From Somniosus microcephalus (taxonomy: Eukaryota): a DNA stretch of 64,000 nucleotides. Positions 479-60,483 of the stretch are shown piece after piece. The notes beneath the pieces are model-generated. The model did no database searches, was not told where the DNA came from, and saw only the letters and a program-made list of their open reading frames with translations. The position numbers and the translations under genes were made by a program. Each line of letters begins with the position of its first letter. Positions within the stretch are counted from its first letter, which is position 1. The stretch is from NCBI GenBank assembly GCA_052327205.1, contig CM126212.1:16244001-16308000 (forward strand), written 5' to 3'.

Positions 479-1494
479 CAAAACACAAACATTTATTATG
501 AGTTGATATAGTTGCCTACGCAAAATATTAAAATATTTAGAACACATAGTTCTGTAGTGATACCAGCAGAAGCTATTTCAAAAAACAAGGTCTGGTGCAG
601 TGACAGGCACTTCCCCAGGAGTTAAAGACTGACAAATGTGCCAGTGTAAGCCTTAACTCAAAGGCTCTCACTACAGTCAGACTTGCATGCTCGATAGGTT
701 GGATAATGCACTCTGTGAGTGGAATGGAAGTGTGCCAGAGAAGACCAATACTTAGCAGGAGGAAATATAACGTCTGATAGGACTTGTCTAAAATACACAG
801 AAACTACTCAACAAGTGATTTTATTTCACCCCATCTGCTAATTTACCTGACAGAGAGGGGAAAACGTGCCTCTTTTTCCAGGACAGTAACCTAATGGATC
901 CGCAATAAACCTTTGCTTTGGACACTTAACTCTTCAGTTGTCAAAAGGTGTTTCTATTTGTAAAACTGAATTTATATTTTGTTTTATTCCAACACCTTCC
1001 TGCAATTCTTTCCCCACTGACACGGATTAGTAAACATGCAAACTCTCAGCAGCCCAACGTGACTGGACACTACAAGGACGAATTCAACAAAGGACTCATT
1101 TCCAAACTGTACGCCAATCAGATGGCATCACAGAATGCAACGAGGGGCTTCACGTCTGTGATTTCCCACATAACAAGTCCTATATCTTGATTAGGCCATG
1201 AGGACAAAACACTGAATGGAACTGAGGTCTTTCCCTATCGGTCAGCTGTGGCTCAGTGGGCAGCACTCTCGCCTCTGAGTCAGAAGGTTGTGGGTTTAAG
1301 TCCCACTCCAGAGGCTTGAGCACAAAAATCTAGGCCAACACTCCAATGCAGTGCTGAGGGAGCGCTGCACTGTCGGAGGGGCCGTCTTTTGGATGAGATG
1401 TTAAACCGAGGCCTTGTCTGCTCTCTCAGGTGGACATAAAAGATCCCACGGCACTATTCCGAAGAAGAGCAGTGGAGTTATCCCCAGTGTCCTG

Positions 1495-1751
1495 TGTTGT
1501 GTATGTAATATGTGTGCTACTTTGAACCTATGGACAGGACTGCACTACTTGTTGGGCGTAGTGATACGCAGTACCACTCCTGGCCATAGGGGTATAAATA
1601 GTACTGTGGGTACTGATCTCCCCTCAGTTCCCGCCTGTGGGCATGAAGTAAAGACCTATGTATAGTCCCTACCTCCAACCAGTAAAGACCTGTTTGAGTT
1701 ATACGTTTAAGTCTTTGTGTTAATTGTTCAATACAATACACATACTTAACA
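1495..1751 (+). promoter_or_regulatory. 5' LTR of the chimeric element
   Basis: TG...CA ends, TATAAATA near 1593, and two AGTAAAGACCT copies (polyA-signal variant) at about 1648 and 1681. Confidence 0.85.
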
Positions 1752-2305
1752 CTGGCGACGAGTCTGATTCGGACCCTGCGGCAGTCACTCCACGGCAGCT
1801 TCGTCCACAGCCAGGACGTTGCAGAGAGGTTTCCACCCTCTCCACCCCACTGGAAGACATCCTGACCTCGGAGCCTCCATCGGCGACCGTCAGCTTCTTC
1901 TCCAGCTTGGTGGTGGGTAAGCCGTTGTCTGAGCCGGGCAGCGACGCGACAGGCAGTCGACCGCGTTGGCCGCACGAACGGGGCTGGGGGAGCTGGAGGA
2001 ATAGGGCGCGAGAGCCGCTTCGAGCGGGAGGCGTTTCAACAGAGCGATCGCATCTCCTGATAAGAGCCGAGAGCCGCTTCGCGATCCAGCGATCGCATCC
2101 GCTGATAAGGGCCGCACTCGGGCGATCGCGGCGAAGATAAGGGCCGCACTCGGGGGCTGAAGGGAGACGGCGTCGGGGGACGGGTGAAGACCGCCAAGCG
2201 CGGGAAAACCGCCATTTTGTGGGCGGAGGACGACGGCAAGAGCGGGAAGCCGCCATCTTTGATAACAAGTAAAGAAAATAAAATCTGAGAAATTGCAAAT
2301 CTACA

Positions 2306-4522
2306 ATGCCTAAACACGGGAATATTAGCACCTTTGATAGTGACCTCGAAGATTGGGCCATATATGTTGAAAGAGTAAAAAATTATTGTAAGGCCAATAA
2401 AATTCGTGACCAAGATAAAGCTCTAACATTATTAAATTTAATGGGTGCGAAGACATACGGGCAATTGAAACACCTGTTATCACCAGATGAACCGGCGGAT
2501 AAGACGTTCGATGAGATTGTTACTGTCCTGAAAGATCATCTAAACCCCACGCCGCTGATGCTAGCGGAACGATTTAAATTTTACGACAGAAGGCAGCTAC
2601 AGCATGAAAGCAATGCTGATTATTTGCTGGAATTGCGTAAATTAGCGAAATATTGCCAGTTTGGAACGGGACTGACAGAGGCACTTCGAGACAAATTTGT
2701 GTGTGGTTTATTTAAACAGGATACACAAAAGCGACTGCTAGAGGAGAATGAGCTGACGCTTGAGAAGGCGGTCACTATGGCAGCAGCACACGAAGCCGCA
2801 GCGAGAGGCACGGCAGTAATGCAGCTACGGTCACCGGAGCTCAGTACACACAAATTGGGTGTGAGTTCTGGCAAATGTTATCGTTGTGGAAAGACAACGC
2901 ATGATGAGAACCAGTGTTGGTTTAAAAACCAAGAATGTAGAACTTGTGGTAGGCTTGGACATATAGCTAGAGTATGCAGGTCAGGGAAGAAGACCAGCAA
3001 CAAGAAGTCACCGCAAGGAAAATACGCAAAGGTACACAAGGTGACCGAACAGGAGTCCGATTCAGACGCTAGCAGTAATGAACTGGCTAGCTTAAGCTGT
3101 AATGAACTGGCTAGCTTAAGAGTACTCAACGCTGGTAAGGGTGCAGACCTCCAGACAATTTGGGTCACTCTTCAGATAGAAGGAGTCCAAGTAAAACTGG
3201 AATTGGACACTGGATCGGCATTGACGGTCATAAATAAGAAAGATTACGGAAAGATATTCCAACATATTCCCCTACAGGATACGGGGATTATATTGAAAAC
3301 ATACACGGGGCAAAGAGTGTACCCCATCGGGAAAATAGAGGTTGCAGTGGTCCACAAGGGCGAAGACAGTCAAATAATGGACTTATATGTGATATCTGAA
3401 GGAGGTTCTCCACTACTAGGACGGGAGTGGATTAGGAAAATGAATATGGACTGGCATTTCCTACAAAAAATAACGAGTGAGAACTCGGTGAAGATAGTCG
3501 GCCCAGACTCTGGAACGGATGATGGTAAGCCCAACTCAGGTGCAAAAGACAAAGTTTCAGCACAGAATTCCACTGAGCAACAACAACATAGTTTAACTGT
3601 GGATTCTGAGTCTGGCAAGTCTACTGATGTGCCCATTTCTGAGGGACACCGGGCTCGAACTCAACTCCATTTCAAACTACAACAGCAATTAGAACAAATG
3701 CTTCGCCGTTGTGAGCAAGAGTTGAATGCAACGAAAGAGTTCTTTGATATAGAGTTGGAGAATCTGGAAAGACAACAGAAGCAGCTGATGGAGAAAATGG
3801 AGCAGGAGCACACAAAACGTCTGATGTCAGAGGAGTTAACGGTCAGCCAACTCCTGCATATGCTGAAGGACAGGACTCTGAAATGGGAAAAACTTGAACA
3901 CGAACTTCAATATTCAAACGAAAGGGGTTCGGAGCTCTCAAAGGTTATTGGAAGAGCTGAGGTGGCAACACAGACTGAGATGACTGCAACAGAGCAGCCC
4001 TTGGATGCCAAAAGTACGCTGACTCACGTCAACGTAGAACAACAGACCGCTGAAACAGCTGCTCCGGTAGAGGGATTGAATAGTCCGATCAATCAATCTC
4101 CAAAAGAAGTTGAAGTAGTAAAATCTCAAATGAGGTCATTAGTAAACGACTTGCTGAAAGCCCAGAAAAAGCTGGATGAAGAGGTACGCATGAAGAAGTC
4201 TCTTCAGGAAAGATGTCTGGACTTGGAACAAAAGCTGGCTAACGCCCAGCTGGGTATGGAGGAAATAGAAGACCCTCTCGCTGGCCTAGATCAGGACGAC
4301 ACCGAATATTACTATGTCCTGTCCTGCCCAACTTGTAACTTCGACTCCCACCATACAGAAATCATGGAGGAGCACCGAAAGTCTACGGAACATCGGGAGA
4401 AGGTGGCTCTACTACGGAAAAAGGAGGGAGAGAAGGAGGAACTGCGCATGCAGCTGGCAGCTGACAGTGGAGCCCAGAGAGTCTCCAAGAAGCAGAAAAG
4501 GAAAAGTCGAAACAGAAGATGA
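2306..4522 (+). CDS. Gag (two CCHC knuckles) + aspartic protease fused in frame to host-derived coiled-coil and C2H2 zinc-finger segments, 738 aa
   Basis: [14 protein letters not shown] and [14 protein letters not shown] knuckles; protease LELDTGS...LLGREW. No YLDD, RNaseH or DDE motifs. Tail resembles STK10/SLK, OPTN and DNAJC21. Confidence 0.9.
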
Positions 4523-5970
4523 CCCATCTGAACCATTATTACCTCTACCAGATCACACACGTGGTCCCTCCGAACGGAGCCAATTCAGTTCGGAAGTTCA
4601 AACTGTTAAATCCATGGAAGGACTATTGAATGAGTCACTCCAGCAACGTGAACCGACTACACCACAGAGATTGAATCTGTGAACTGTTTTCCGCAGAGAC
4701 TGAATCTGTGATCTGTTTTGACATGAAGTTATCTATGTATCTATGTTATTCTGTTATGTAAACCTGAAGTTATATATGTATATATGTTATTACGTTATGT
4801 TAAATGGGGAGATGACTGTAAAGCTAGGAAGGGAGGAACGTTGTGTATGTAATATGTGTGCTACTTTGAACCTATGGACAGGACTGCACTACTTGTTGGG
4901 CGTAGTGATACGCAGTACCACTCCTGGCCATAGGGGTATAAATAGTACTGTGGGTACTGATCTCCCCTCAGTTCCCGCCTGTGGGCATGAAGTAAAGACC
5001 TACGTGTAGTCCCTACCTCCAACCAGTAAAGACCTGTTTGAGTTATACGTTTAAGTCTTTGTGTTAATTGTTCAATACAATACACATACTTAACATCCTG
5101 GCCAATATTTATCCCTCAATCAACTTAACAAAAACAGATTACCTGTATCTGGTCATTATCACATTGCTGTTTGTGGGACCTTGCTGTGCGCAAATTGGCT
5201 GCCGCGTTTCCCACTGTTTACAACAGTGACTACACTCCAAATGTACTTCATTGGCTTCATCGGTGGTCATGAAAGGCGCTAGATAAATGCAAATCTTTCG
5301 TTCTTTCAGGCAGGGGGTAAGATTGCAAAGCAGCTCCAATTGGCATTAACAGAGATCTAGAAACAGGTTGCTTGATCACCCAGAAAATAATACATGGCAC
5401 AAAGAGGGAAGAGAAAATCTCAAACGGGAGAATGAAAATGGTTCCAGCTGATAAAAACGTTGTTATTTTTGCAACCAACCTCTTGCCACAACCCCGTTTT
5501 ATGTTTAGTAGACTCTGAAAGCTCACTTCAGCATGTCTTAACAAGCAGCTCGCTTTCAAGTAGTAAGAAATCAGCTGTCAATAATTTCCTATTTTTCCTC
5601 TTTAAAGTTGATGAATGCGGATTTCACTCTTCCGATAGGTTGAGCCCAATTCACGCACCTTTTCAAAACGCTGCATCTATCTCTGTAACATTTTGACAAT
5701 GCTATATTTGGCACAGGCGCGATGGGCCGAATGGCCTCTTTCTGTGCTGTATGATTTGAAAATAAGAGAGGATGAATACACCTCAAGACACTTTGGAGGT
5801 CGTTTTTGTCTTCACCATTTGAGCGGTAAACCAGTGAGGCCGATCGATGGAAATGAAAATCGGGGGGTTTCTACAGCGGGCCGGACGGGTTCTATAACAG
5901 CCGGACAATCCACTCCGCCAGAATACTGCCTGTGCACAATGCAGACGAAAATTTAATGCACAATATTAAT

Positions 5971-14065: not shown

Positions 14066-16927
14066 TCATAATCATCATCAACTTTATTGTCATTGTTAGT
14101 GCACAAGTGCAGTACAACGAAATGTAGGCTTGCGGCTCCCGAGAGTGTACATTTAGATTAAGACATTTAACATTCAACATTCATTTGGCTTGTAATACAT
14201 AAACATAAACATAAACATAATAAAGTGCATTGGCAGATGTGCAGGCTTTAGAGTTTATTTGTAGAGTTCAGTAGGATGACAGCCCTGGGAAAGCTGTTCC
14301 TAAATCTGGTCGTTCGGGTGCGAATGCATCTGTATATGGATTGGAGGGTAGCTAACGTTACCCCACTATTCAAAAAGGGGGGTAGGGAAAAAGCAGGTAA
14401 TTACAGACCTGTAAGCCTTACATCAGTTGTGGGCAAAATGCTGGAGTCCATCATTAAGGATGAAATAGCGGAGCACTTAGCAAATGGGGACAGGATAGGA
14501 CAGAGTCAACATGGATTTACAAAGGGTAAATCGTGCTTGACTAATCTATTGGAATTTTTTGAGGGAGTAACTGGTAGAATAGATGGGGGAGAGCCAGTAG
14601 ATGTGGTGTACCTGGACTTCCAAAAGGCCTTCGATAAGGTCCCACATAAAAGATTAGCATGGAAAATTGAGGCTCATGGGATAAAGGGGAAAGTTTTGGC
14701 GTGGATAGGGAACTGGCTGTCAGATAGAAAACAGAGAGTTGGAATAAACGGCTCATTTTCTGAATGGCAGGCAGTAACAAGTGGGGTACCACAGGGATCT
14801 GTCCTGGGCCCCCAGCTGTTCACAATTTACATTAATGACCTGGATCAGGGAGTCGGATGCAGCATTTCCAAATTTGCAGACGACACTAAACTAGGAGGGG
14901 GGGTGGGCTCAGAGGAAGAGACCAGGAAGCTCCAGAGCGATTTGGACAGACTGGGCGATTGGGCGGATAAATGGCAGATGCACTATAATGTGGACAAGTG
15001 CGAAGTTATCCACCTTGGGTGCAGGAACGGGAGGGCAAATTATTATTTAAATGGCAATAGATTGGGAGAGGGGGAAGTACAGAGAGACCTGGGTGTTCTT
15101 GTACACCAGTCACTGAAGGCGAGCATGCAGGTGCAACAGGCGGTCAAGAAGGCAAACGGTATGCTGGCCTTCATAGCAAAAGGGTTAGAATACAGGAACA
15201 GGGATACCTTGCTGCAGCTGTACAGGGCACTGGTGAGACCACACCTCGAGTACTGTGTACAGTTTTGGTCGCCTCATCTGAGGAAGGATGTTCTTGCCAT
15301 GGAGGGGGTGCAGCGGCGATTCACCAGGCTGATACCAGGAATGGCGGGAATGACCTATGAGGAGAGACTATGTAGTTTAGGGATGTACACACTGGAGTTT
15401 AGAAGATTGAGAGGGGACCTCATAGAAGTGTATAAAATTCTGACAGGTCTAGACAGACTGGATGCAGAAGGAATGTTTCCCTTGGCGGGTGAGAACAGAA
15501 CTAGAGGACATAATTTAAGGATAAGGGCTAAACCATTTAGGACAGAGATGAGGGGGAATTTCTTCACTCAGAGAGTGGTGAACCTGTGGAACTCATTGCC
15601 ACAGAGGGCAGTGTACGCCAGCTCATTAAATATATTTAAGAGGGAATTAGATATATTTCTACGGGCAAAAGGGGTTAAGGGTTACGGAGAGAAGGCGGGG
15701 ACGGGATACTGAATTAAAGGATCAGCCATGATCTCATCGAATGGCGGAGCAGGCACGAAGGGCCGAATGGCCTACTCCTGCTCCTATCTTCTATGTATCT
15801 ATGTATGTATCTATGTAGCGTCTCCCAGATGGCAGGGGGGCGAACAAACTGTGGCTGGGGTGGGTAGGGTCTTTGATGATGGTCCGTGACCTCCGTAAAC
15901 AGCGTTTCTGGTAGATGTTCTCTATGGTCGGTAGCCGGGTGCCGGTAATGCGTTGGGCAGTTTTGACTACCCGCTGCAGGGCTTTCCGGTCATAGGAGCT
16001 ACAGCTGCCATACCACACTGTGATACAGTTCGTCAGGATGCTCTCTATTGTGCAGCGGTAAAAGTTAGAGAGGATCAGGGGTGACAGGTTACATCCTTTC
16101 AGCCTCCTTAGGAAATATAGGCGCTGCTGGGCCTTCTTCACCAAAGAGGAGGTATTGAGGGACCAGGAGAGGTCTTCCGTGATGTGGACTCCGAGGAACT
16201 TAAAGCTGTCCACCCTTTCCACCACAGCCCCATGGATGTGGATGGGGGTGTGACTTCCGCCTTTAGACTTCCTGAAGTCCACAATGATTTCCTTGGTTTT
16301 CTTGATGTTAAGGGCCAGGTTGTTATCGGCGCACCACTTCACGAGATGCTGGACCTCCTCCCTGTAGGCTGACTCATCGTTGTTGGTGATCTGGCCTACC
16401 ACCGTGGTATCATCCGCAAACTTGATGATGGTGTTGGAACCATGAACAGCCACACAGTCGTGGGTGAAGAGGGAGTAGAGGAGGGGGCTCAGCACACAAC
16501 CTTGTGGGGCCCCCGTGTTCAGGGTCAAGGGGGGGGGGGTGGGGGGGGGAGGTGTGGTGGGAGGTGTGGTTACCTAATTTGACAGACTGGGTCTGTTAGT
16601 TAGGAAGTCCAGGGTCCAGTTGCAAAGGGAAGTGTTCAGGCCAAGAGTGTGGAGTTTGGTGGCCAGCTTGTTGGGGACGATAGTGTTGAATGCTGAGCTG
16701 TAGTCTATGAACAGCATTCTGATGTAGGTCTCCTTACCGTCTAAGTGATTCAATGCAGAATGTAGAGCAGTTGTGATTGCATCCTCTGTTGATCTGTTTG
16801 CACGATAGGCAAACTGGTGTTGGTCAAGAGAGGCGGGAACACTGGCTTTGATGTGAGCCAGGACCAGTCTCTCGAAACACTTCATTATGATGGGCGTGAG
16901 TGCGACAGGTCGATAGTCGTTCAGACC
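14066..16927 (-). mobile_element. 5'-truncated Rex1/Babar LINE interrupted by CR1
   Basis: RT ORFs at 16574-16885 (KCFERLV...[11 protein letters not shown]) and 15791-16528 (GAPQGCVLSP...KFADDT). 3' UTR at 14066-14334. Confidence 0.92.
14337..15817 (+). mobile_element. 5'-truncated young CR1 LINE with intact RT reading frame
   Basis: DWRVANVTPLFKKG...GVPQGSVLGP...KFADDTK with no stops until 15712, then a (ctatgtat)n tail. Confidence 0.95.
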
Positions 16928-21339: not shown

Positions 21340-22238
21340 GGTACAGTAGTATAGTGATTATGTTACTGGACTAGTAATCCAGAGGCCTGGGCTAATAATC
21401 CAGAGAATGCAAGTTCAAATCCCACAATGGCAGCTTGAGAATCTCGATCAGTTTTTTTTTTAAATCTGGTAACAGAGTAAAGTGACCATGAAGGTGTTGG
21501 ATTGTCGTAAAAACCCAACTGGCTCACTAATGTCATTTAGGAAAGGAAACCTGCCATCCTTACCCGGTCTGGCCTATATGTGATTCCAGTCCCACGCCCG
21601 TTCACTGTGTTCATTAGGAAAGGAAATCTACCGTCCTGACCCGGCCTGGCCTATATGTGACTCCGGTCCCACGCCCGTTCACTGTGTTCATTAGGAAAGG
21701 AAATCTACCGTCCTTACCCGGTCTGGCCTATATGTGACTCCGGTCCCACGCCCGTTCACTGTGTTCATTAGGAAAGGAAATCTACCGTCCTTACCCGGTC
21801 TGGCCTATATGTGACTCCGGTCCCACACCCATTCACTGTGTTCATTAGGAAAGGAAATCTACCGTCCTTACCCGGTCTGGCCTATATGTGACTCTGGTCC
21901 CACGCCCGTTCACTGTGTTCATTAGGAAAGGAAGTCTACCGTCCTTACCCGGTCTGGCCTATATGTGACTCCGGTCCCACGCTGGATTCACTGTGTTCTT
22001 TAGGGAAGGAAACCTGTCGTCCTTACCCGGCCTGGCCTATATGTGACTCCAGTCCCACGCCAACGTGGTTGAATCTGAACGGCCCTCTGAAGCGGCCTAA
22101 CAAGATACTCAGTTGTATCAAAACCGCTTAGACTGCAACGATTCAAGAAGGCCCAATACCACCTTCACAGGCCAACCAGGAATGGGCAAAAAATGCCGGC
22201 CTTGCTAGCAATGCCCACACCCCGAGAATGGATAAAAA
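21340..22238 (+). mobile_element. tRNA-derived SINE with an internally amplified core
   Basis: Head ...gttactggactagtaatccagag...gttcaaatccc. Tail gggcaaaaaatgccggccttgctagcaatgcccac resembles the LINE tail at 62085-62135. Confidence 0.8.
21524..22060. repeat. 77-bp minisatellite x7
   Basis: Unit ttcactgtgttcattaggaaaggaaatctaccgtccttacccggtctggcctatatgtgactccggtcccacgcccg. Internal copies start at 21601, 21678, 21755, 21832 and 21909, with more diverged first and last units. Confidence 0.95.
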
Positions 22239-45369: not shown

Positions 45370-48300
45370 TGTAATGTATGTACCTTTAAGGGGGAGAACT
45401 ACTTTTTACAGCTCCTGTATCCTGTAGTACCGGCAGTGACCACACCTGTATATAAACCCTGAGTAGTGATCTGTACAGTCAGTTGCAGTTTGAACCCTCA
45501 TTCAGTAAACACCTGTTGATCGTTCCCTGCAGTCTTTTGTCTGATTATTGAAGGACACAACATTAAAATACCCGGATCTAACATTGGCGACGACAAAGAT
45601 TCGAACCTACCTGCAACTCTGCATCACCTCCCAGGGATTCGCTCCTGGAGAGCAGTGGAGGGAGGTCGAGTCCAGAAGCACAGGCATCGCAGGGGAGGCT
45701 GTCGAGAGCCAGGCTTGGCTTTCCAGTCACGGTGGTCCAGCGAAACGGGCTGGCAACAGGTACTGCGCAGACCCTTCCCGGACAGCGGCGGCTAGAGCCA
45801 ACCGAGCGGCACAGAAAAAGGCCGAGCAGCGTCGACGGGGGAGAGAGGGCAGAGCGCACAGGGCGCAGCTGGTGTTCAAGGGCTGAGCAGCGTTAACGGG
45901 GGAGAGAGGCGAGAGAGAGCAGAGCGCAGCCGGTGTTCAGGACCGAGCGGCGTCAACGGAGGAGAGAGGCGAGAGAGAGCAGAGCGCAGCCGGTGTTCAA
46001 GGGCCGAGCAGCATCAACAGGGGAGAGAGGCGCGCAGGAAAACGCGAGGCGCTGCCACTGCCACGAGGACTGCAGAGAGCGGCATTGGCAGCAGCGCAGG
46101 AGCAGCGCACGAAACCCACAGAGCGTCGCCATTTGCCACGAGGACCGCCGAGAGCGGCGTTGGCAGCAGCGCGGGAGACGCCATTTTAAGCCGCAGCGGG
46201 GAAGAAAGGAAAGCGCGGGAGACGCCATTTTAAGCTGCAGCGGGGAAGAAAGGAAAGCACGGGAGACGCCATTTTAAGCCAGTCTAACCACACCCAAAAA
46301 TGCCGAAGAGTGGCAGTATCACAGCGTTCGACAATGAAGTCGAAGATTGGACGACATATGTCGAACGCATAGAAGTACACTGCAAGGCGAATGAAGTGCC
46401 AGATGACAAGAAAGCGCTGGTATTGTTGAATTCAATGGGTGCAAAAACGTTTGGCTTACTACGAAACCTAGTAACCCCAGAGAAGCCAGTAGAAAAGGAT
46501 TTTGAAAACATAGTGTCAATCCTACAGGACCACTTAAACCCCACACCGCTGCTGATAGCAGAAAGATTTAAGTTTCACAAAAGGAACCAGCATAAAGAGG
46601 AAAGTAATGCTGAGTATTTAACGGAACTGCGCAAGCTATCGAAACACTGCCAGTTTGGAACGGGACTAGCAGATACTTTAAGGGACAAGTTTATGTGTGG
46701 GCTTCAAAGTGAAGGAACCCAGAAACGGCTTCTATCAGAAAAGGATCTTACGCTGGACAAGGCTTTCAGCATTGCAGTATCACACGAAGCAGCTGCACGG
46801 GGCGCTGCAGAGATACAACGGAGACCGCAAGAATATGGCACAAATGAAATGTTATACGGAACAGTGAAGTGCTATCGCTGCGACAGAACAACACACGACC
46901 ATAATGATTGCTGGTTCAAGGACAAAGTGTGCAGACAGTGTGGAAAAGTAGGACACATAGCAAGAGTCTGCAGGTCGGGAAAGAAAACCAGCAGCAAGAA
47001 ATCTCCACAGGAGAAGTACAAGAAGGTACATAAGGTGACGGAGAGTAGTTCAGACGAACAGAAGAGTGATACAGACTCCGGAAGCAAGGAGCTGGGTTGT
47101 CTGAAACTACATAATGTGATCAAAACGGAGGATCACCAAACTATCTGGGTCACGCTCAAGATAGCAGGAGTCCAAGTGAAAATGGAATTGGACACAGGAT
47201 CAGCCCTAACAGTCATAAACCGAAGGGACTACAAGCAACTATTCTCACATATACCCTTGAGAGATACAAAGATTGTCTTGAAGACGTACACGGGGCAAAA
47301 AGTCTACCCCAAAGGAAAAATAAGGGTGAACGTTATATATAATGGCAAGGAAACACCAAAAATGGACCTATATGTATTGCCAGATGGAGGACCACCACTA
47401 CTAGGACGTGAATGGATCCGGAAGATACAGCTAGATTGGCATTCCATACAAGCACTGACTGTAGATGCCAAAAAGGATGACGACGTCACACCTGGACGAC
47501 TGTCAAAAATGCTAACTGACGCACAAGAAGTGTTCCAGCAGGGACTCGGAACACTAAAAGGCATAACAGCGATGATCAAAATAGAGGAAAATGCAAGCCC
47601 AAAGTTTTTTAAGGCCAGACCGGTACCTTATGCGATCCGCCCAGCCGTCGAAGCAGAGCTGGAAGGTTTGGAACGTTCAGGAGTACTGTCCAAAGTGGAC
47701 TGGAGTGAGTGGGCTACACCCATCGTTCCTGTAATGAAGAGGTCGTTGAGTAATACGCCTGGGGAACCAAAGAAGGTTCGCATCCGTGGGGACTTTAAGG
47801 TGACAGTGAACCCAGTCCTTCACACTGTACAATATCCGCTTCCGCGGATTGAAGATATTTTCGCCTTGCTATCTGGAGGGAAACGCTTCACTAAGATTGA
47901 TCTGGCCCAGGCGTACCTGTAAATGGAGGTAGAAGAAGCCTCGAAACAGTACCTCACGATCAACACTCATAAAGGTCTCTACCAATACAACCGGCTGGTG
48001 TTCGGGGTAGCATCAGCTCCAGCTATTTGGCAAAGGGCAATGGAACAAGTCCTGCAAGGGATTCCAGGGACCCAGTGTTATTTGGACGACATCCTGGTCA
48101 CGGGTGAAAATGACAGTGATCACCTCGCCAACCTGGAGCAGGTGCTCACTAGATTGAAGGAATATGGGCTTCGAGCTAATCACCACAAATGCGAGTTTTT
48201 CCAGACGCAGATCTCGTATTGTGGCCACGTTATTGATAAAGAGGGGTTACATAAGTCCCCTGAAAAGATTGAGGCAGTAGTCAAGGCTCCAGCACCGGAA

Positions 48301-50576
48301 AATGTGTCACAACTGAGGTCGTTCCTCGGGCTGGTGAACTACTACCATAAGTTCTTGCCGAATTTGTCTACCGTACTACACCCACTGAACACCCTACTGC
48401 AAACGGGGGTACCATGGAAGTGGAGTGACAAATGTAAACGAGCTTTCCAGAACAGCAAAGCGTTGATCACATCAAAAGAGGTGTTGGCTCATTTCAACCC
48501 AGCACTACCAATTCGGTTGGCGTGTGATGCATCACCCTATGGCATTGGAGCGGTGCTGTCGCACAAATTCCCGGACGGCTCGGAGAGGCCAGTAGCCTTT
48601 GCGTCTTGGTCACTAACCTCAGCCGAACGAAACTACGCCCAGATTGACAGGGAGGCCCTCAGCCTAGTGTGGGGAGTGAAAAAGTTCAATCACTATCTGC
48701 ACGGGCAGAAGTTCACCTTGCTGACTGACCACCAACCACTTGTCTCCATCTTTAATCCAAAGAAGGGCGTTCCGGTGATGACTGCGCAACGGCTACAAAG
48801 ATGGTCCCTTTTTCTAGGGGCGCACCAATATGATATCGAGTATAAGGGCACGAAACAGCATGGAAACGCTGATGGGCTATCACGCCTGCCACTGCCTACT
48901 GTGGAGGAAGCACCAGCAGCGGATCCTGTCGAAATATTTCATTCGACTATAATTGAATGCTTGCCAGTAACTAACGCTGGTATAGAGAAGGAGACCCGAA
49001 ATGACCCGACACTGTCTCGGGTATATGATTTGACGGTGAAGGGATGGCCAGCACATGGCGACTCACTGTTGCCAGCATTCTCATCCAGAAGAGAACAGCT
49101 GTCAGTATGCCAGGGGATCTTGATGTGTGGATCCCGAGTGGTAATTCCACCCAAGTTAAGGGAGAGAGTGCTCAATGAGCTTCACGAAGGTCATCTGGGA
49201 GGGGTGAAAATGAAAAGCCTTGCTAGGGCTTATGTGTGGTGGCCGGGGATCGATCAGCAAATCGAGGACCTGACAAAGAGCTGCTCAGGATGCCAGAAGG
49301 TCCAAAATGCACCACCACATGCCCCTCTACACCCATGGGAGTGGCCCTCATCTCCATGGCAACAGGTGCATATTGATTTTGCTGGTCCATTCATGGACTC
49401 AATGTTTTTAATAGCCGTGGATGCGCACTCGAAATGGCCTGAGGTGATCAAAATGTCCTCCACCACCACAGAGAAAACTATTGCAGTCCTACGGACCATT
49501 TTTGCCAGGAACGGCTTGCCAGAGCAGATTTGCTCTGATAACGGACCACAGTTTGTGTCCGAAGAGTTTCGAAGATTTATGAAAAGGAATGGGGTAAGGC
49601 ATTACACATCCGCCCCGTATCATCCAGCCACAAATGGATTGGCTGAGAGGTTCGTACAAACCTTTAAAAAAGCAGTAAAGGCCATGTGCGATGATGACAT
49701 TCCACTGCAGCATAAGGTGGATAATTTCCTGTTAGCCTTCAGAAATGCGACACATGCAGTCACCAACCAGGCCCCGGCCATGATGTTCTTTAACCGAAGG
49801 TTGAGATCTCGTCTGGATTTGCTCAGACCAAATGTACGAAGAGATGTTGAGAATAAGCAATTCCAGCACATCAATGAGAAGCCGACAAGGAGCTTCAATG
49901 TAGGGCAACCAGTCTTGGCCCGCGACTGCCTAACAGAGAAATGGCAACCAGGAACGATATGCACAAGGCAGGGGCCACTAATGTACACAGTGGATGTTGG
50001 GGAGAACATTGTGAGACGCCATGCTGACCAGATCCTAGAGTCACAGGAACGAGTCAACCCCATGTCTCGGCCATACGTACCTGGTGAGGAACCCGATGTA
50101 CAGGTCGCATCTACCTCAGAAACAATAGCATTGGAAGCTGATGAATCAACTGACGACAGGGTGTTAGAATCGCCTCCGCACCAAGAGCGAGACACTCGGG
50201 AAAGGCGTTATCCAGAAAGAATCAGGAATCCGCCCCAAAGACTGAATTTATAAATAGACTATTTTCAGTTAATGTTGCATGTTAAAAGTGTTAATTGTAA
50301 TTAGTTTGATATTTAATTGTTAAATGAGTGTTATGGTACTGTTAATCTAAAAGGGGAGGAATTGTAATGTATGTACCTTTAAGGGGGAGAACTACTTTTT
50401 ACAGCTCCTGTATCCTGTCGTACCGGCAGTGACCACACCTGTATATAAACCCTGAGTAGTGATCTGTACAGTCAGTTGCAGTTTGAACCCTCATTCAGTA
50501 AACACCTGTTGATCGTTCCCTGCAGTCTTTTGTCTGATTATTGAAGGACACAACATTAAGATACTCGGATCTAACA
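45370..50576 (+). mobile_element. Full-length Ty3/Gypsy (Mag-type) LTR retrotransposon
   Basis: 214-bp LTRs at 45370-45583 and 50363-50576 with 3 differences counted by eye. TSD TGCCA (45365-45369, 50577-50581). PBS TGGCGACGA at 45585 and PPT aaaaggggaggaa. Confidence 0.97.
46300..50253 (+). pseudogene. gag-pol polyprotein (Gag, PR, RT, RNaseH, IN) with one in-frame premature TAA at 47920-47922
   Basis: ORFs 46300-47922 and 47923-50253 are in the same frame. Motifs: DTGS protease, YLDD RT, DAS RNaseH, HHCC and D..D..E integrase, C-terminus PPQRLNL. The stop replaces the conserved Q of AYLQ (CAA>TAA). Confidence 0.95.
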
Positions 50577-52628
50577 TGCCACTCAACACATCCCCATCAC
50601 TCTGCCATCCCTACCCTACTCCTGCACATCGTTACACCTCCACCCATCCCTCTCTATCTACATTATCACTTCCCCATCTCACTGGCCACCCCTCACACTC
50701 GTCCTCATCCCACTGCAAGCATACCAACTAACAACACACAAGGGTAGGCACTTGAGAGGTTTAGCCAATGTCCAGGTGAAGTTTCTGGTAATGTGTTGTC
50801 ATACAGTGAAATCTATATTTTCAACACTGCCCCTCATTGGACAGATCTGTGCTCACTTTGAGAAGTGTCTTACTGAGTTCCAGTGAATGTTGGGACATAA
50901 CTTCCCCCCCACCCCCCTGTAGTGATGAGTGTGCATGGAATGGCTTGGACATTAAAGGGATGCTTTACGGTGCTGGTGTGGGATGGTGTCCACCTGGTGC
51001 GGGATGGTGTCCACCTGGTGCATCATGTGGCAGCCAGGGTTAACAGCGTCAAGTGAAGTAAATCTGGCCATGGCGATGCCATCGCTCGCCTCCTGGGCAG
51101 CAGCGTTGTCGGGGGCTGATGCCCTGTGTCCTGTGCAGCATCAGGTGATGTCAGAGAAGATTGGTGATGTTGTCAGTGATGTTGGTGTGCCTGGTGATAT
51201 TGGTGTTGGGGCTGATCGTGGAAGGATTCGGAGGACCACGGTCTGATTTTCCCAAGGGCACCGATGTTGTTGCAATAGATGGCAGCTGCAGGTGAGATGA
51301 CAGAAGCGATCTGTCAATGGTGAGAGAGGTTGTGCCAATGAGGTGGCACTGGACATACAGTTGGCTCTAAACACTTGTAAGCTAAAGAAATCTCTATATG
51401 TCTTACAAATGCAGTAACCAACAGTTTCTGCGCTCTGAAACTGACCATCTGCAACATGGCATCCTTTACACCACTTCTGCAGCTGTCAGCTTATCAGATA
51501 CATCAGAGCAGACTCAACTCATGCCAGGGTGAGCTGGCGTGTTCCCCGAGCAGCGGGTAACCCGTGGGGGAGAACGTAAAATTGGAAGGAAGCCTCAAAA
51601 TAGTCTTAAATTGGCTCTTAACAAGCCATTTAATGAGCTCAATTGTCTCCCCCACCACTTGGTGTTGGGTCAGTTCTCCGCTGACAGACCCGACACCTGG
51701 GAGACTCGCGTGGAGGCGGGTTGACAGCGGGTTTCCTACCCGCTGTCAATCTTTGCTATTTTGACAGCGGACCCGCCTCCAAACCTGCCCTCTGAGCGCT
51801 GGCAAAATTCTGGCCTTCGTGTAAGGTTTTGTGCACAGTGTTTGAAATGGCACTTTCCACAACGTGAGGTGCTTCCCAAATTGGATTTGTGCCATGCCTC
51901 ATGGGCCACACGAGAAACATCTGCAAAGGTGAAGAGCGTGCAACATTCATCTAGTCCCTGATAGCAGGACATTTCTTCCTCATTCGCAGGCGGGTAAAAA
52001 GGCGGTGGGTGACTGCACTGGTTGGGTTGGCGACCTGCCTCCGTTCAGTTTGCACCCGTGCTTTTACTGCAGGGTGGGCTTCAGCCCCACAGAGATACAC
52101 CCTCCTTGGGTGCAACTTTGGCAGCAAGACCTCCAACCCGCCAGCATCAAGGGGGAGTAGTGTTGCCCACAAGTTTCCGCTACGCCATCAACGATTAGTC
52201 CATTTTTCTGCTACTGCCATAACCATCCCCCTTTACGCTGAGCTGCAGCCCTTCAACAGCTGCTGCCTCACTGGATTTTGTGCTAAGTGTTCAACAGGCC
52301 AAGCTCTCTGCGCAAGCTATTCCTCTGCCTGGTCCTTCCCAAGGTACAGACGCAAGCATGGCCCCAATTCTGCCGGGATCAGAGTATGTACAAAGGTCCT
52401 ACTCACCAACATGTTGGAGCTGTGGCAGGATACTGCTCCACATTACCCATGTTATTGTTACCACTGACATTCATTTTTAATCCACTGGACCAAGCTTTCT
52501 CTGGCTTCAAGGGTTAAGTTACTTTTCCCTGACCCGGATTAAGTTACGAGGAGAGATTACACAAATTAGGGTTGTATTCCCTAGAAGTTAGAAGGTCAAG
52601 GAGTGATCTAATTGAAGTTTTCAAGGTA

Positions 52629-59385: not shown

Positions 59386-60240
59386 AATCATCATAATCAA
59401 TCATAATCAACTTTATTGTCATTGTTAGTGCACAAGTGCAGTACAACGAAATGTAGGCTTGCAGCTCCCGAGAGTGTACATTTAGATTAAGACATTTAAA
59501 CATTCAACATACATTTGGCTTGTAATACATTAACATAAACATAACCATAATAAAGTGCATTGGCAGATGTGCAGGCTTTAGAGTTTATTTGTGGAGTTCA
59601 GTAGGATGACAGCCCTGGGAAAGAAGCTGTTCCTAAATCTGGTCGTACGGGTGCGAATGCATCTGTAGTGTCTCCCAGATGGCAGGAGGGCGAACAGACT
59701 GTGGCTGGGGTGGGTAAGGTCTTTGATGATGGACCGTGACCTCCGTAAACAGCGTTTCTGGTAGATGTGCTCTATGGTCGGTAGCCGGGTGCCGGTAATG
59801 CGTTGGGCAGTTTTGACTACCCGCTGCAGGGCTTTCCGGTCATAGTAGCTACAGCTGCCATACCATACTGTGATACAGTTCGTCAGGATGCTCTCTATTG
59901 TGCAGCGGTAAAAGTTAGAGAGGATCAGGGGTGACAGGTTACATCCCTTCAGCCTCCTTAGGAAATATAGGCGCTGCTGGGCCTTCTTCACCAGAGAGGA
60001 GGTATTGAGGGACCAGGCGAGGTCTTCCGTGATGTGGACTCCGAGGAACTTAAAGCTGTCCACCCTTTCCACCACAGCCCCATTGATGTGGATGGGGGTG
60101 TGACTTCCGCCTTTAGACTTCCTGAAGTCCACAATGATTTCTTTGGTTTTCTTGATGTTAAGGGCCAGGTTGTTATCGGCGCACCACTTCACGAGATGCT
60201 GGACCTCCTCCCTGTAGGCTGACTCATCGTTGTTGGTGAT
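59386..60240 (-). mobile_element. 5'-truncated Rex1/Babar LINE
   Basis: ORF 59578-60192 (WCADNNLALN...KKAQQRLYFLRRL...RFRNSFFPRAV), near-identical to 15818-16390. Confidence 0.93.
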
Positions 60241-60483
60241 CCTTTTGTGTGGAAAAAGTACATCCTGACTTCCTGCTTAAATTAATAGCAAAATACTGCG
60301 GAAGGCACTGGCTCATTACTGAAATATGGTTCCACGGGCGTGTTGTGCCTCCTACTACCTCACTCAGTCCGGCATTCTTCACCCGCTAGCTTAGACAGCA
60401 ATTGTCAGCAAGCTATGGTTCTGGCGCTCATCCCAACATCCAGACTCAATTGATAGCAAAATACTGCGGATGCTGGAAATCCG

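Follow-up and report, generated by a model that had tools for sequence, protein, structure and literature searches.

Pieces of optineurin, STK10 and DNAJC21 in the Gag-protease reading frame of a young Ty3/Gypsy lineage of a shark

The window, i.e., the whole 64,000-nucleotide stretch of shark DNA analysed here, contains at positions 1495-5095 a young, non-autonomous Ty3/Gypsy LTR element in which pieces of three unrelated host genes continue the reading frame of Gag and protease (PR). The lineage to which this element belongs is best read as a vertebrate exon-shuffling lineage resembling maize Bs1, of unusual scale, and the host-derived sequence that it carries, its ‘cargo’, as mostly an in-frame passenger. 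An earlier note on this DNA had recognized a captured mid coiled-coil segment of optineurin (OPTN) within the frame, which both the host genome and the protein databases bear out. It had suggested as well that this segment could serve as a decoy against host OPTN, an idea which finds little support.

The element and its chimeric reading frame

An open reading frame of 738 amino acids (2306-4522) lies between two 257-bp LTRs, the 5' LTR (TG...CA) at 1495-1751 and the 3' LTR at 4839-5095, which are 99% identical to each other. It is in this frame, and on the plus strand as are all of the features of the element described here, that the peptides quoted in the earlier note are found. A 5-bp target-site duplication, TCCTG, is present at 1490-1494 and again at 5096-5100, the element having inserted within a SINE-like repeat, and duplications of this length are exact in all 27 of the sister copies that could be scored. 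Also read directly from the sequence are a primer-binding site, TGGCGACGAG, at 1753-1762, which presumably fits the 3' end of tRNA-Ser, and a polypurine tract at 4824-4838. Gag (2306-3010), with two CCHC zinc knuckles, is seen by way of weak Pfam matches, and an aspartic protease (3152-3460, with DTG at 3206) by Pfam as well as by its dN/dS versus sister elements. These features, together with relatives whose domains are ordered PR-RT-RH-IN, are those of Ty3/Gypsy elements. A Pfam search of the frame found no RT, RNase H or integrase, that is, none of what would make the element an autonomous Ty3/Gypsy, and where those domains would be there are instead the pieces of STK10, OPTN and DNAJC21.

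The STK10-derived piece (3475-3822) consists of parts of exons B, D and E and codes for the PKK coiled coil, matching Pfam PKK above cut-off and host STK10 exons at 86-93% nucleotide identity. The OPTN-derived piece (3815-4266) consists of four spliced exons of the mid coiled coil, with the LIR-bearing exons trimmed off. Its join to the DNAJC21 module is a crossover microhomology between OPTN and STK10 exon A (4256-4273, coding for MEEIED), followed by a DNAJC21-derived zinc-finger piece (4274-4513) that is strongly diverged in the window copy. The stretch 4514-4690 retains traces of STK10 exons A and B as well as of the Pol end, now out of frame past the stop codon at 4520-4522. Elsewhere in the window, 45370-50577 is occupied by a Gypsy relative that does bear Pol (domains PR-RT-RH-IN) and whose two LTRs are 99% identical; its Gag-PR is 63-74% identical to that of the element, it has one stop (47920-47922), and its family has many copies at 96-98%. 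The window also holds a tandem array of 77-bp period (21460-22059), LINE reverse-transcriptase fragments (14252-16573, 59578-60276 and others) and many SINE-like repeats.

The OPTN locus of the same genome (G000:C17) was located via its NEMO domain. To this host gene 3815-4266 matches in four exons at 81-92% nucleotide identity, i.e., 92.0% over 112 nt, 80.6% over 196 columns (with one 21-nt gap), 86.6% over 119 and 89.3% over 56. The earlier placement of the segment at 3824-4237 was correct as to position, with the true limits being slightly wider. The OPTN exons adjoin in the element with their introns gone, at three exon joins in the window copy and five in sisters, and introns thus have been lost relative to host OPTN, a comparison that the earlier note had proposed along with searches against OPTN and IKBKG. 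The two genes are separated by the search as well: where OPTN matched, nothing was found in the NEMO/IKBKG locus (L033-L042, 100 kb), and NEMO was rejected as donor. The best database matches are shark optineurins (E 3.6e-38 and E 9.8e-51), to which the host OPTN exons also are nearest. The piece is identical to residues 226-384 (of 667) of Pristiophorus OPTN in 114 of 159 columns, with 28% of columns differing between it and shark OPTN.

What was captured is far from a functional optineurin. The TBK1-binding N-terminus, the LIR, the UBAN and the zinc finger all are missing from the piece, as the earlier note had already remarked for the first three; among Pfam matches to the frame there is no OPTN or NEMO domain, whether N-terminal, UBAN or zinc-finger, and a LIR-type motif is seen in sister elements only. 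A single-sequence structure model predicts a helical tail. The sequence of that tail, searched against the PDB, gave two chance matches only, and Foldseek with the single-sequence model of 4160-4519 gave no match. Compared with element copies, two adjacent exons of the host OPTN assembly (L024:4770-4794 and L024:5344-5410) each have one extra base, which shifts the frame; these two bases may be an assembly error or a damaged allele.

The tripeptide TQT is the anchor of the LC8-binding motif. Such an anchor, to which the earlier note had drawn attention, is indeed found at 3968-3976, making this a candidate LC8 motif. It is shared by most shark OPTNs, by 40 of 40 window-type copies and by 8 of 10 sister elements, with TPT in its place in the other two sisters and in the host OPTN assembly. 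TQT, which most shark OPTNs possess, was inherited from OPTN rather than acquired by the element.

It is by way of a less diverged sister, L105, which matches DNAJC21 proteins (best E 6.9e-10) and Pfam zf-C2H2_jaz, that 4274-4513 can be assigned, by its sequence, to DNAJC21. A protein search with the zinc-finger piece of the window itself yielded 46 candidates, none of which scored, and host DNAJC21 exons were sought in the genome and not located. The sisters carry other genes in addition. From 150 scored PKK loci 20 were fetched, picked for variety, and 19 of these are sister elements with other cargo, among it Ig domains (titin-like by PDB, and which we take to be obscurin-like) and two unnamed inserts. 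OPTN, that is, is one among several unrelated cargoes of the lineage, along with STK10, DNAJC21, the Ig domains and the two unnamed inserts. An in-frame insert of 153 codons is seen within the STK10 piece at L061:4550-5008 (minus strand), for which Pfam gives nothing and which to our eye presumably resembles BAZ1A. An in-frame insert with a C2HC/C2H2-like finger is seen past the protease at L053:2770-3231, and also in L045 and L047. A locus with no similarity to the element (L043, G000:C3:354658487-354658909) holds the 3' part of an STK10/SLK-like gene without its introns and is a separate retrocopy.

Copy number and capture history

Patterns were counted across the whole 6.4-Gb assembly with up to 2 mismatches allowed, under which reversed controls gave zero. 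The window-type STK10/OPTN junction has 4,307 matches, the junction of a longer OPTN capture 3,768, and an STK10 back-splice junction, in a region that elsewhere is taken over by the OPTN insert, 1,140. As these three junctions are mutually exclusive, the family comprises more than 9,000 elements. For the window-type protease end the count is 4,187, and the tail is found at 100% amino-acid identity in all 117 places scored. A set of 40 window-type copies was taken from contig C1, from among its first 100 exact matches to the junction; the frame is unbroken from the Gag start through OPTN in 34 of the set, and the OPTN piece is free of stops in all 40. LTR pairs differ at 54 of 9,227 nt, with 13 of 36 pairs lacking any mismatch, and those of sisters at 33 of 3,710 nt; it is because LTR pairs are nearly identical that the element lineage can be called young. 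Among 46 matches of 405-1,292 aa, none is annotated as a fusion of Gag-PR with STK10/OPTN in another species. Head-to-tail runs of elements, at a spacing of ~3,367 bp, occur at G000:C3:263215394-263226535 and C12:192880109-192887880. Five loci (L104, L105, L110, L114 and L163) combine a window-type interior with a different LTR (about 80%, 3' end only), i.e., LTRs have been swapped between subfamilies.

The founding capture is readable in two sisters, L054 and L060, in which STK10 exons are present at 98-99% in the order B(3' part)-C-D-E-A-B(5' part). E is joined to A exactly at the splice donor and acceptor that these exons use in the host; this join is found in 18 of 19 sister loci, and in the window copy it has been overwritten by OPTN. 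Exons A-E together measure 1,245 nt, which is divisible by three, and the capture is one unit in length, ending where it began. It both starts and ends at an 11-12-nt motif, which occurs as well in the protease-RT linker of the parent, a Pol-bearing family with 5,383 pattern matches that is 98% identical to L054 in Gag-PR. The sisters thus display what marks circRNA-derived copies, namely an exact non-colinear junction with no exon from outside. A one-unit capture closing on its own start would be expected if reverse transcription had gone round a circle, and the STK10 template very probably was a circular RNA.

A tandem duplication of exons, or instead a trans-spliced mRNA, would lead to an identical STK10 junction, and in this sense the circle is something that we infer; transcripts of the elements, too, would yield junction reads identical to those of a circle. 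Against such origins, each STK10 exon is found just once in 80 kb of the host locus, and L054 and L060 contain no exon from outside A-E, with the one-unit capture closing upon its own start. Such linear origins of the STK10 order we regard as quite improbable.

Apart from the circularity of the template, the capture history as read from these sequences is almost certainly as follows. A Pol-bearing parent gained one full STK10 lap with its exact back-splice, and RT-IN was lost. Six spliced OPTN exons next replaced the back-splice part of that lap; microhomologies of 9 nt and about 13 nt are seen at these first OPTN junctions, and of about 8 and 10 nt at those of the window. Separately, DNAJC21 entered an OPTN-free copy, and L134 does carry DNAJC21 and the back-splice without OPTN. 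The OPTN and DNAJC21 modules were then joined at their common motif, coding for MEEIED, at which DNAJC21 and long OPTN are connected in 5 of 6 loci. Trimming of the 5' end of OPTN followed, a deletion at a microhomology of 8 nt having removed the exons that bear the LIR from the window lineage. Long-OPTN sisters carry DDSFVEI, a LIR-type motif which we take to be the LIR of OPTN. Lastly, the product, on a distinct Gag-PR/LTR, burst to more than 4,000 copies. Pattern searches for an element combining the STK10 lap with full Pol, and for a donor of the 3' Pol end, each gave 0 matches.

The window-type Gag-PR forms a separate clade (support 100/100), with a silent-site divergence, dS, of 0.4-0.7 versus 0.08-0.36 for the cargo. 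As the dS of Gag-PR exceeds that of the cargo, a move of the cargo to another Gag-PR vehicle is suggested, though the window-type Gag-PR may instead be a fast lineage.

Selection and retention of the cargo

The reading frame is under selection, having been kept in all 6 shared indel events within the ORF versus 2 of 13 in non-coding parts (Fisher p 0.001, with a -10/-8 indel pair present in the same 8 copies scored as a single event). Versus sisters, dN/dS is 0.07-0.28 for Gag and 0.30-0.38 for protease, and purifying selection on Gag plus PR is seen by permutation (p 0.003, and p 0.0006 on the long branch), with the shared variants of protease alone not significant (p 0.24). The STK10 piece displays no amino-acid constraint (7 of 28 variants synonymous versus 6.6 expected), nor does the DNAJC21 piece (1 of 11 synonymous). 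For OPTN, 11 of 19 shared variants are synonymous versus 6.0 expected (p 0.012, uncorrected, with five segments tested and several of the variants in two copies only), as are 13 of 38 on the long branch versus 9.2 expected (p 0.11) and 6 of 22 between sisters and host versus 6.8 expected. Its pairwise dN/dS of 0.50-0.72 is unclean as a measure, as a 22-codon out-of-frame remnant also gives ~0.4. Constraint on OPTN appears, then, to be weak and borderline, showing in one of three tests.

On balance we think it probable that this is an element which makes Gag and PR, borrows Pol, acquires cargo via template switching and keeps that cargo chiefly as open frame. That is, it would produce its own Gag and protease while taking RT and integrase from Pol-bearing relatives, and relatives with long open frames are present in the genome. 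Host RNA would be gathered through microhomology-guided template switching in the course of reverse transcription. The cargo would be retained mainly since the frame must run open to close to the 3' LTR, with an early stop perhaps resulting in a long 3' UTR prone to decay or in poorer translation-linked packaging. The OPTN coil would be a tolerated tail on Gag-PR, weakly constrained at most, rather than a decoy. Counting against this reading, as does the failure to find the lap-plus-Pol element or the donor of the 3' Pol end, all nine of the odd window-type protease-end loci that were fetched bear cargo and none bears Pol, i.e., Pol-bearing copies with the Gag-PR of the window number 0 of 9. 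Counting against a passenger role, no cargo other than OPTN shows signs of constraint on its amino acids, and loss of all of OPTN in frame is seen in only 7 copies.

It is possible, though on the unlikely side, that the lineage is instead a vertebrate germline protein-evolution machine, in which the trimmed OPTN coil was selected as a working part and drove the burst to more than 4,000 copies. The coil with its TQT may then be a dimerisation handle, an LC8/dynein handle or an OPTN decoy. That the STK10-OPTN coiled coil is structural, dimerising Gag-PR or aiding its co-assembly with helper Gag-Pol, we consider unlikely; such a module, perhaps with an LC8 clamp at TQT, may replace the lost RT/IN and explain the success of the trimmed lineage. 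Consistent with this are the weak synonymous excess in OPTN, the survival of the coils through trimming, the rarity of the OPTN-deletion variant, the helices of the single-sequence model, and TQTE in 40 of 40 window-type copies, which being near-identical lend it little weight. The STK10 coil is nevertheless unconstrained, sisters carrying Ig or other cargo have spread too, and the TQT is inherited, with TPT standing in for it in 2 of 10 sisters as well as in the host assembly.

Reads were taken from parts (24% and 31%) of two raw RNA runs of organism B, which may differ from the species of the window. Run X23 places 11,772 reads, pooling many copies, on 1300-5300, SINE flanks included. Over 4114-4247 these reads number 894 versus 25 on the two strands, with their peak on the OPTN piece, a bias expected to be in the direction of sense RNA in most stranded libraries. 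Run X24 is mixed, at 240 versus 166.

A sense-biased peak on OPTN, in that one run, is in keeping with the decoy idea of the earlier note, by which dominant-negative pairing with host OPTN would blunt autophagic or TBK1-dependent clearance of particles. The demonstrated OPTN origin, the weak constraint on the piece and its in-frame deletion in just 7 copies also agree with such a role. A decoy is very improbable all the same, for the TBK1-binding, LIR and UBAN parts are missing, and LIR-plus and LIR-minus lineages have spread about equally (3,768 versus 4,307). OPTN-free sisters exist moreover, at least 1,140 with the back-splice, and the piece, already unlike shark OPTN in 28% of columns, is one cargo among many unrelated ones.

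The idea of a conflict between host and element over silencing stems from plant work. Applied here, host exons would make silencing of the element costly, or small RNAs of the element would knock down OPTN or STK10. The family does include about 8,000 OPTN-bearing copies, many of them 95-100% identical to host exons, and reads in run X24 are from both strands. The newest lineage has however drifted by ~10% from host exons, and selection on the frame is left unexplained, such that we find this hardly probable at all.

Relation to known systems

A Gag-PR-making, Pol-borrowing element with mostly passenger cargo, our preferred reading, invites comparison with several known systems. Transducing retroviruses carry gag-onc fusions and are helper-dependent, with host mRNA in frame with gag and replacing pol. 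The shark element differs in being a germline retrotransposon, with no env seen and with cargo lacking a shown function. TR-GAG elements, as they are presented in the available part of PMC9784723, likewise consist of two LTRs flanking one Gag ORF and are mobile without a Pol of their own. The shark element is found in an animal, and to Gag, which is the sole coding content of a TR-GAG, it adds protease and a host-derived tail, i.e., 350 aa of cargo.

In the LTR-mediated retrocopies of animals, internal ORFs have given way to spliced mRNA of the host (Tan et al. 2016, PMC5131818, in its accessible portion). Host exons are found between LTRs in the shark as well, with microsimilarity at the switch points (the 3' STK10-Pol junction being unscored), several parent genes per locus and repeated, further retroposition. 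Those retrocopies are, within the same portion of PMC5131818, at single or few loci, whereas the shark element exists in thousands of copies, its cargo is in frame with a conserved Gag-protease, and its modules recombine between sublineages. No account of this element family was found in the literature searched, which took in neither most subscription papers nor the supplements of PMC4897178 and PMC5131818, whose tables may contain closer cases. In practical terms, the presence of about 8,000 partial copies of OPTN, and more of STK10, within one genome will complicate the annotation of these genes, the mapping of reads to them and work on their small RNAs.

With mouse circRFWD2 pseudogenes, of which 33-42 are given in the available text of Dong et al. 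(2016, PMC4897178), the family shares a non-colinear back-splice junction, multiple copies and flanking LTR sequence. The shark family differs from what that text describes in its 1,140 junction copies, in the LTR vehicle, parent and entry motif all being visible, and in a capture that is one exact lap in frame with Gag-PR. The route of circRNAs into genomes is called unknown there and is left open (PMC4897178, same text); with vehicle, parent, entry motif and one-circle capture all readable, the shark family indicates template switching within an LTR particle.

In design the element is like maize Bs1, Bs1 also being an LTR element with pieces of three unrelated host genes in one chimeric ORF (PMC13317346 and PMC5131818, as far as their accessible text goes). 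Bs1 by that same text is a plant element of one to five copies, whereas the shark lineage, a vertebrate Gypsy, goes back to a back-spliced founder and has junctions matched more than 9,000 times. The family thereby offers thousands of dated exon-shuffling intermediates, i.e., of capture, trimming and module recombination, in a vertebrate, and permits a quantitative test of captured domains as passengers versus parts.
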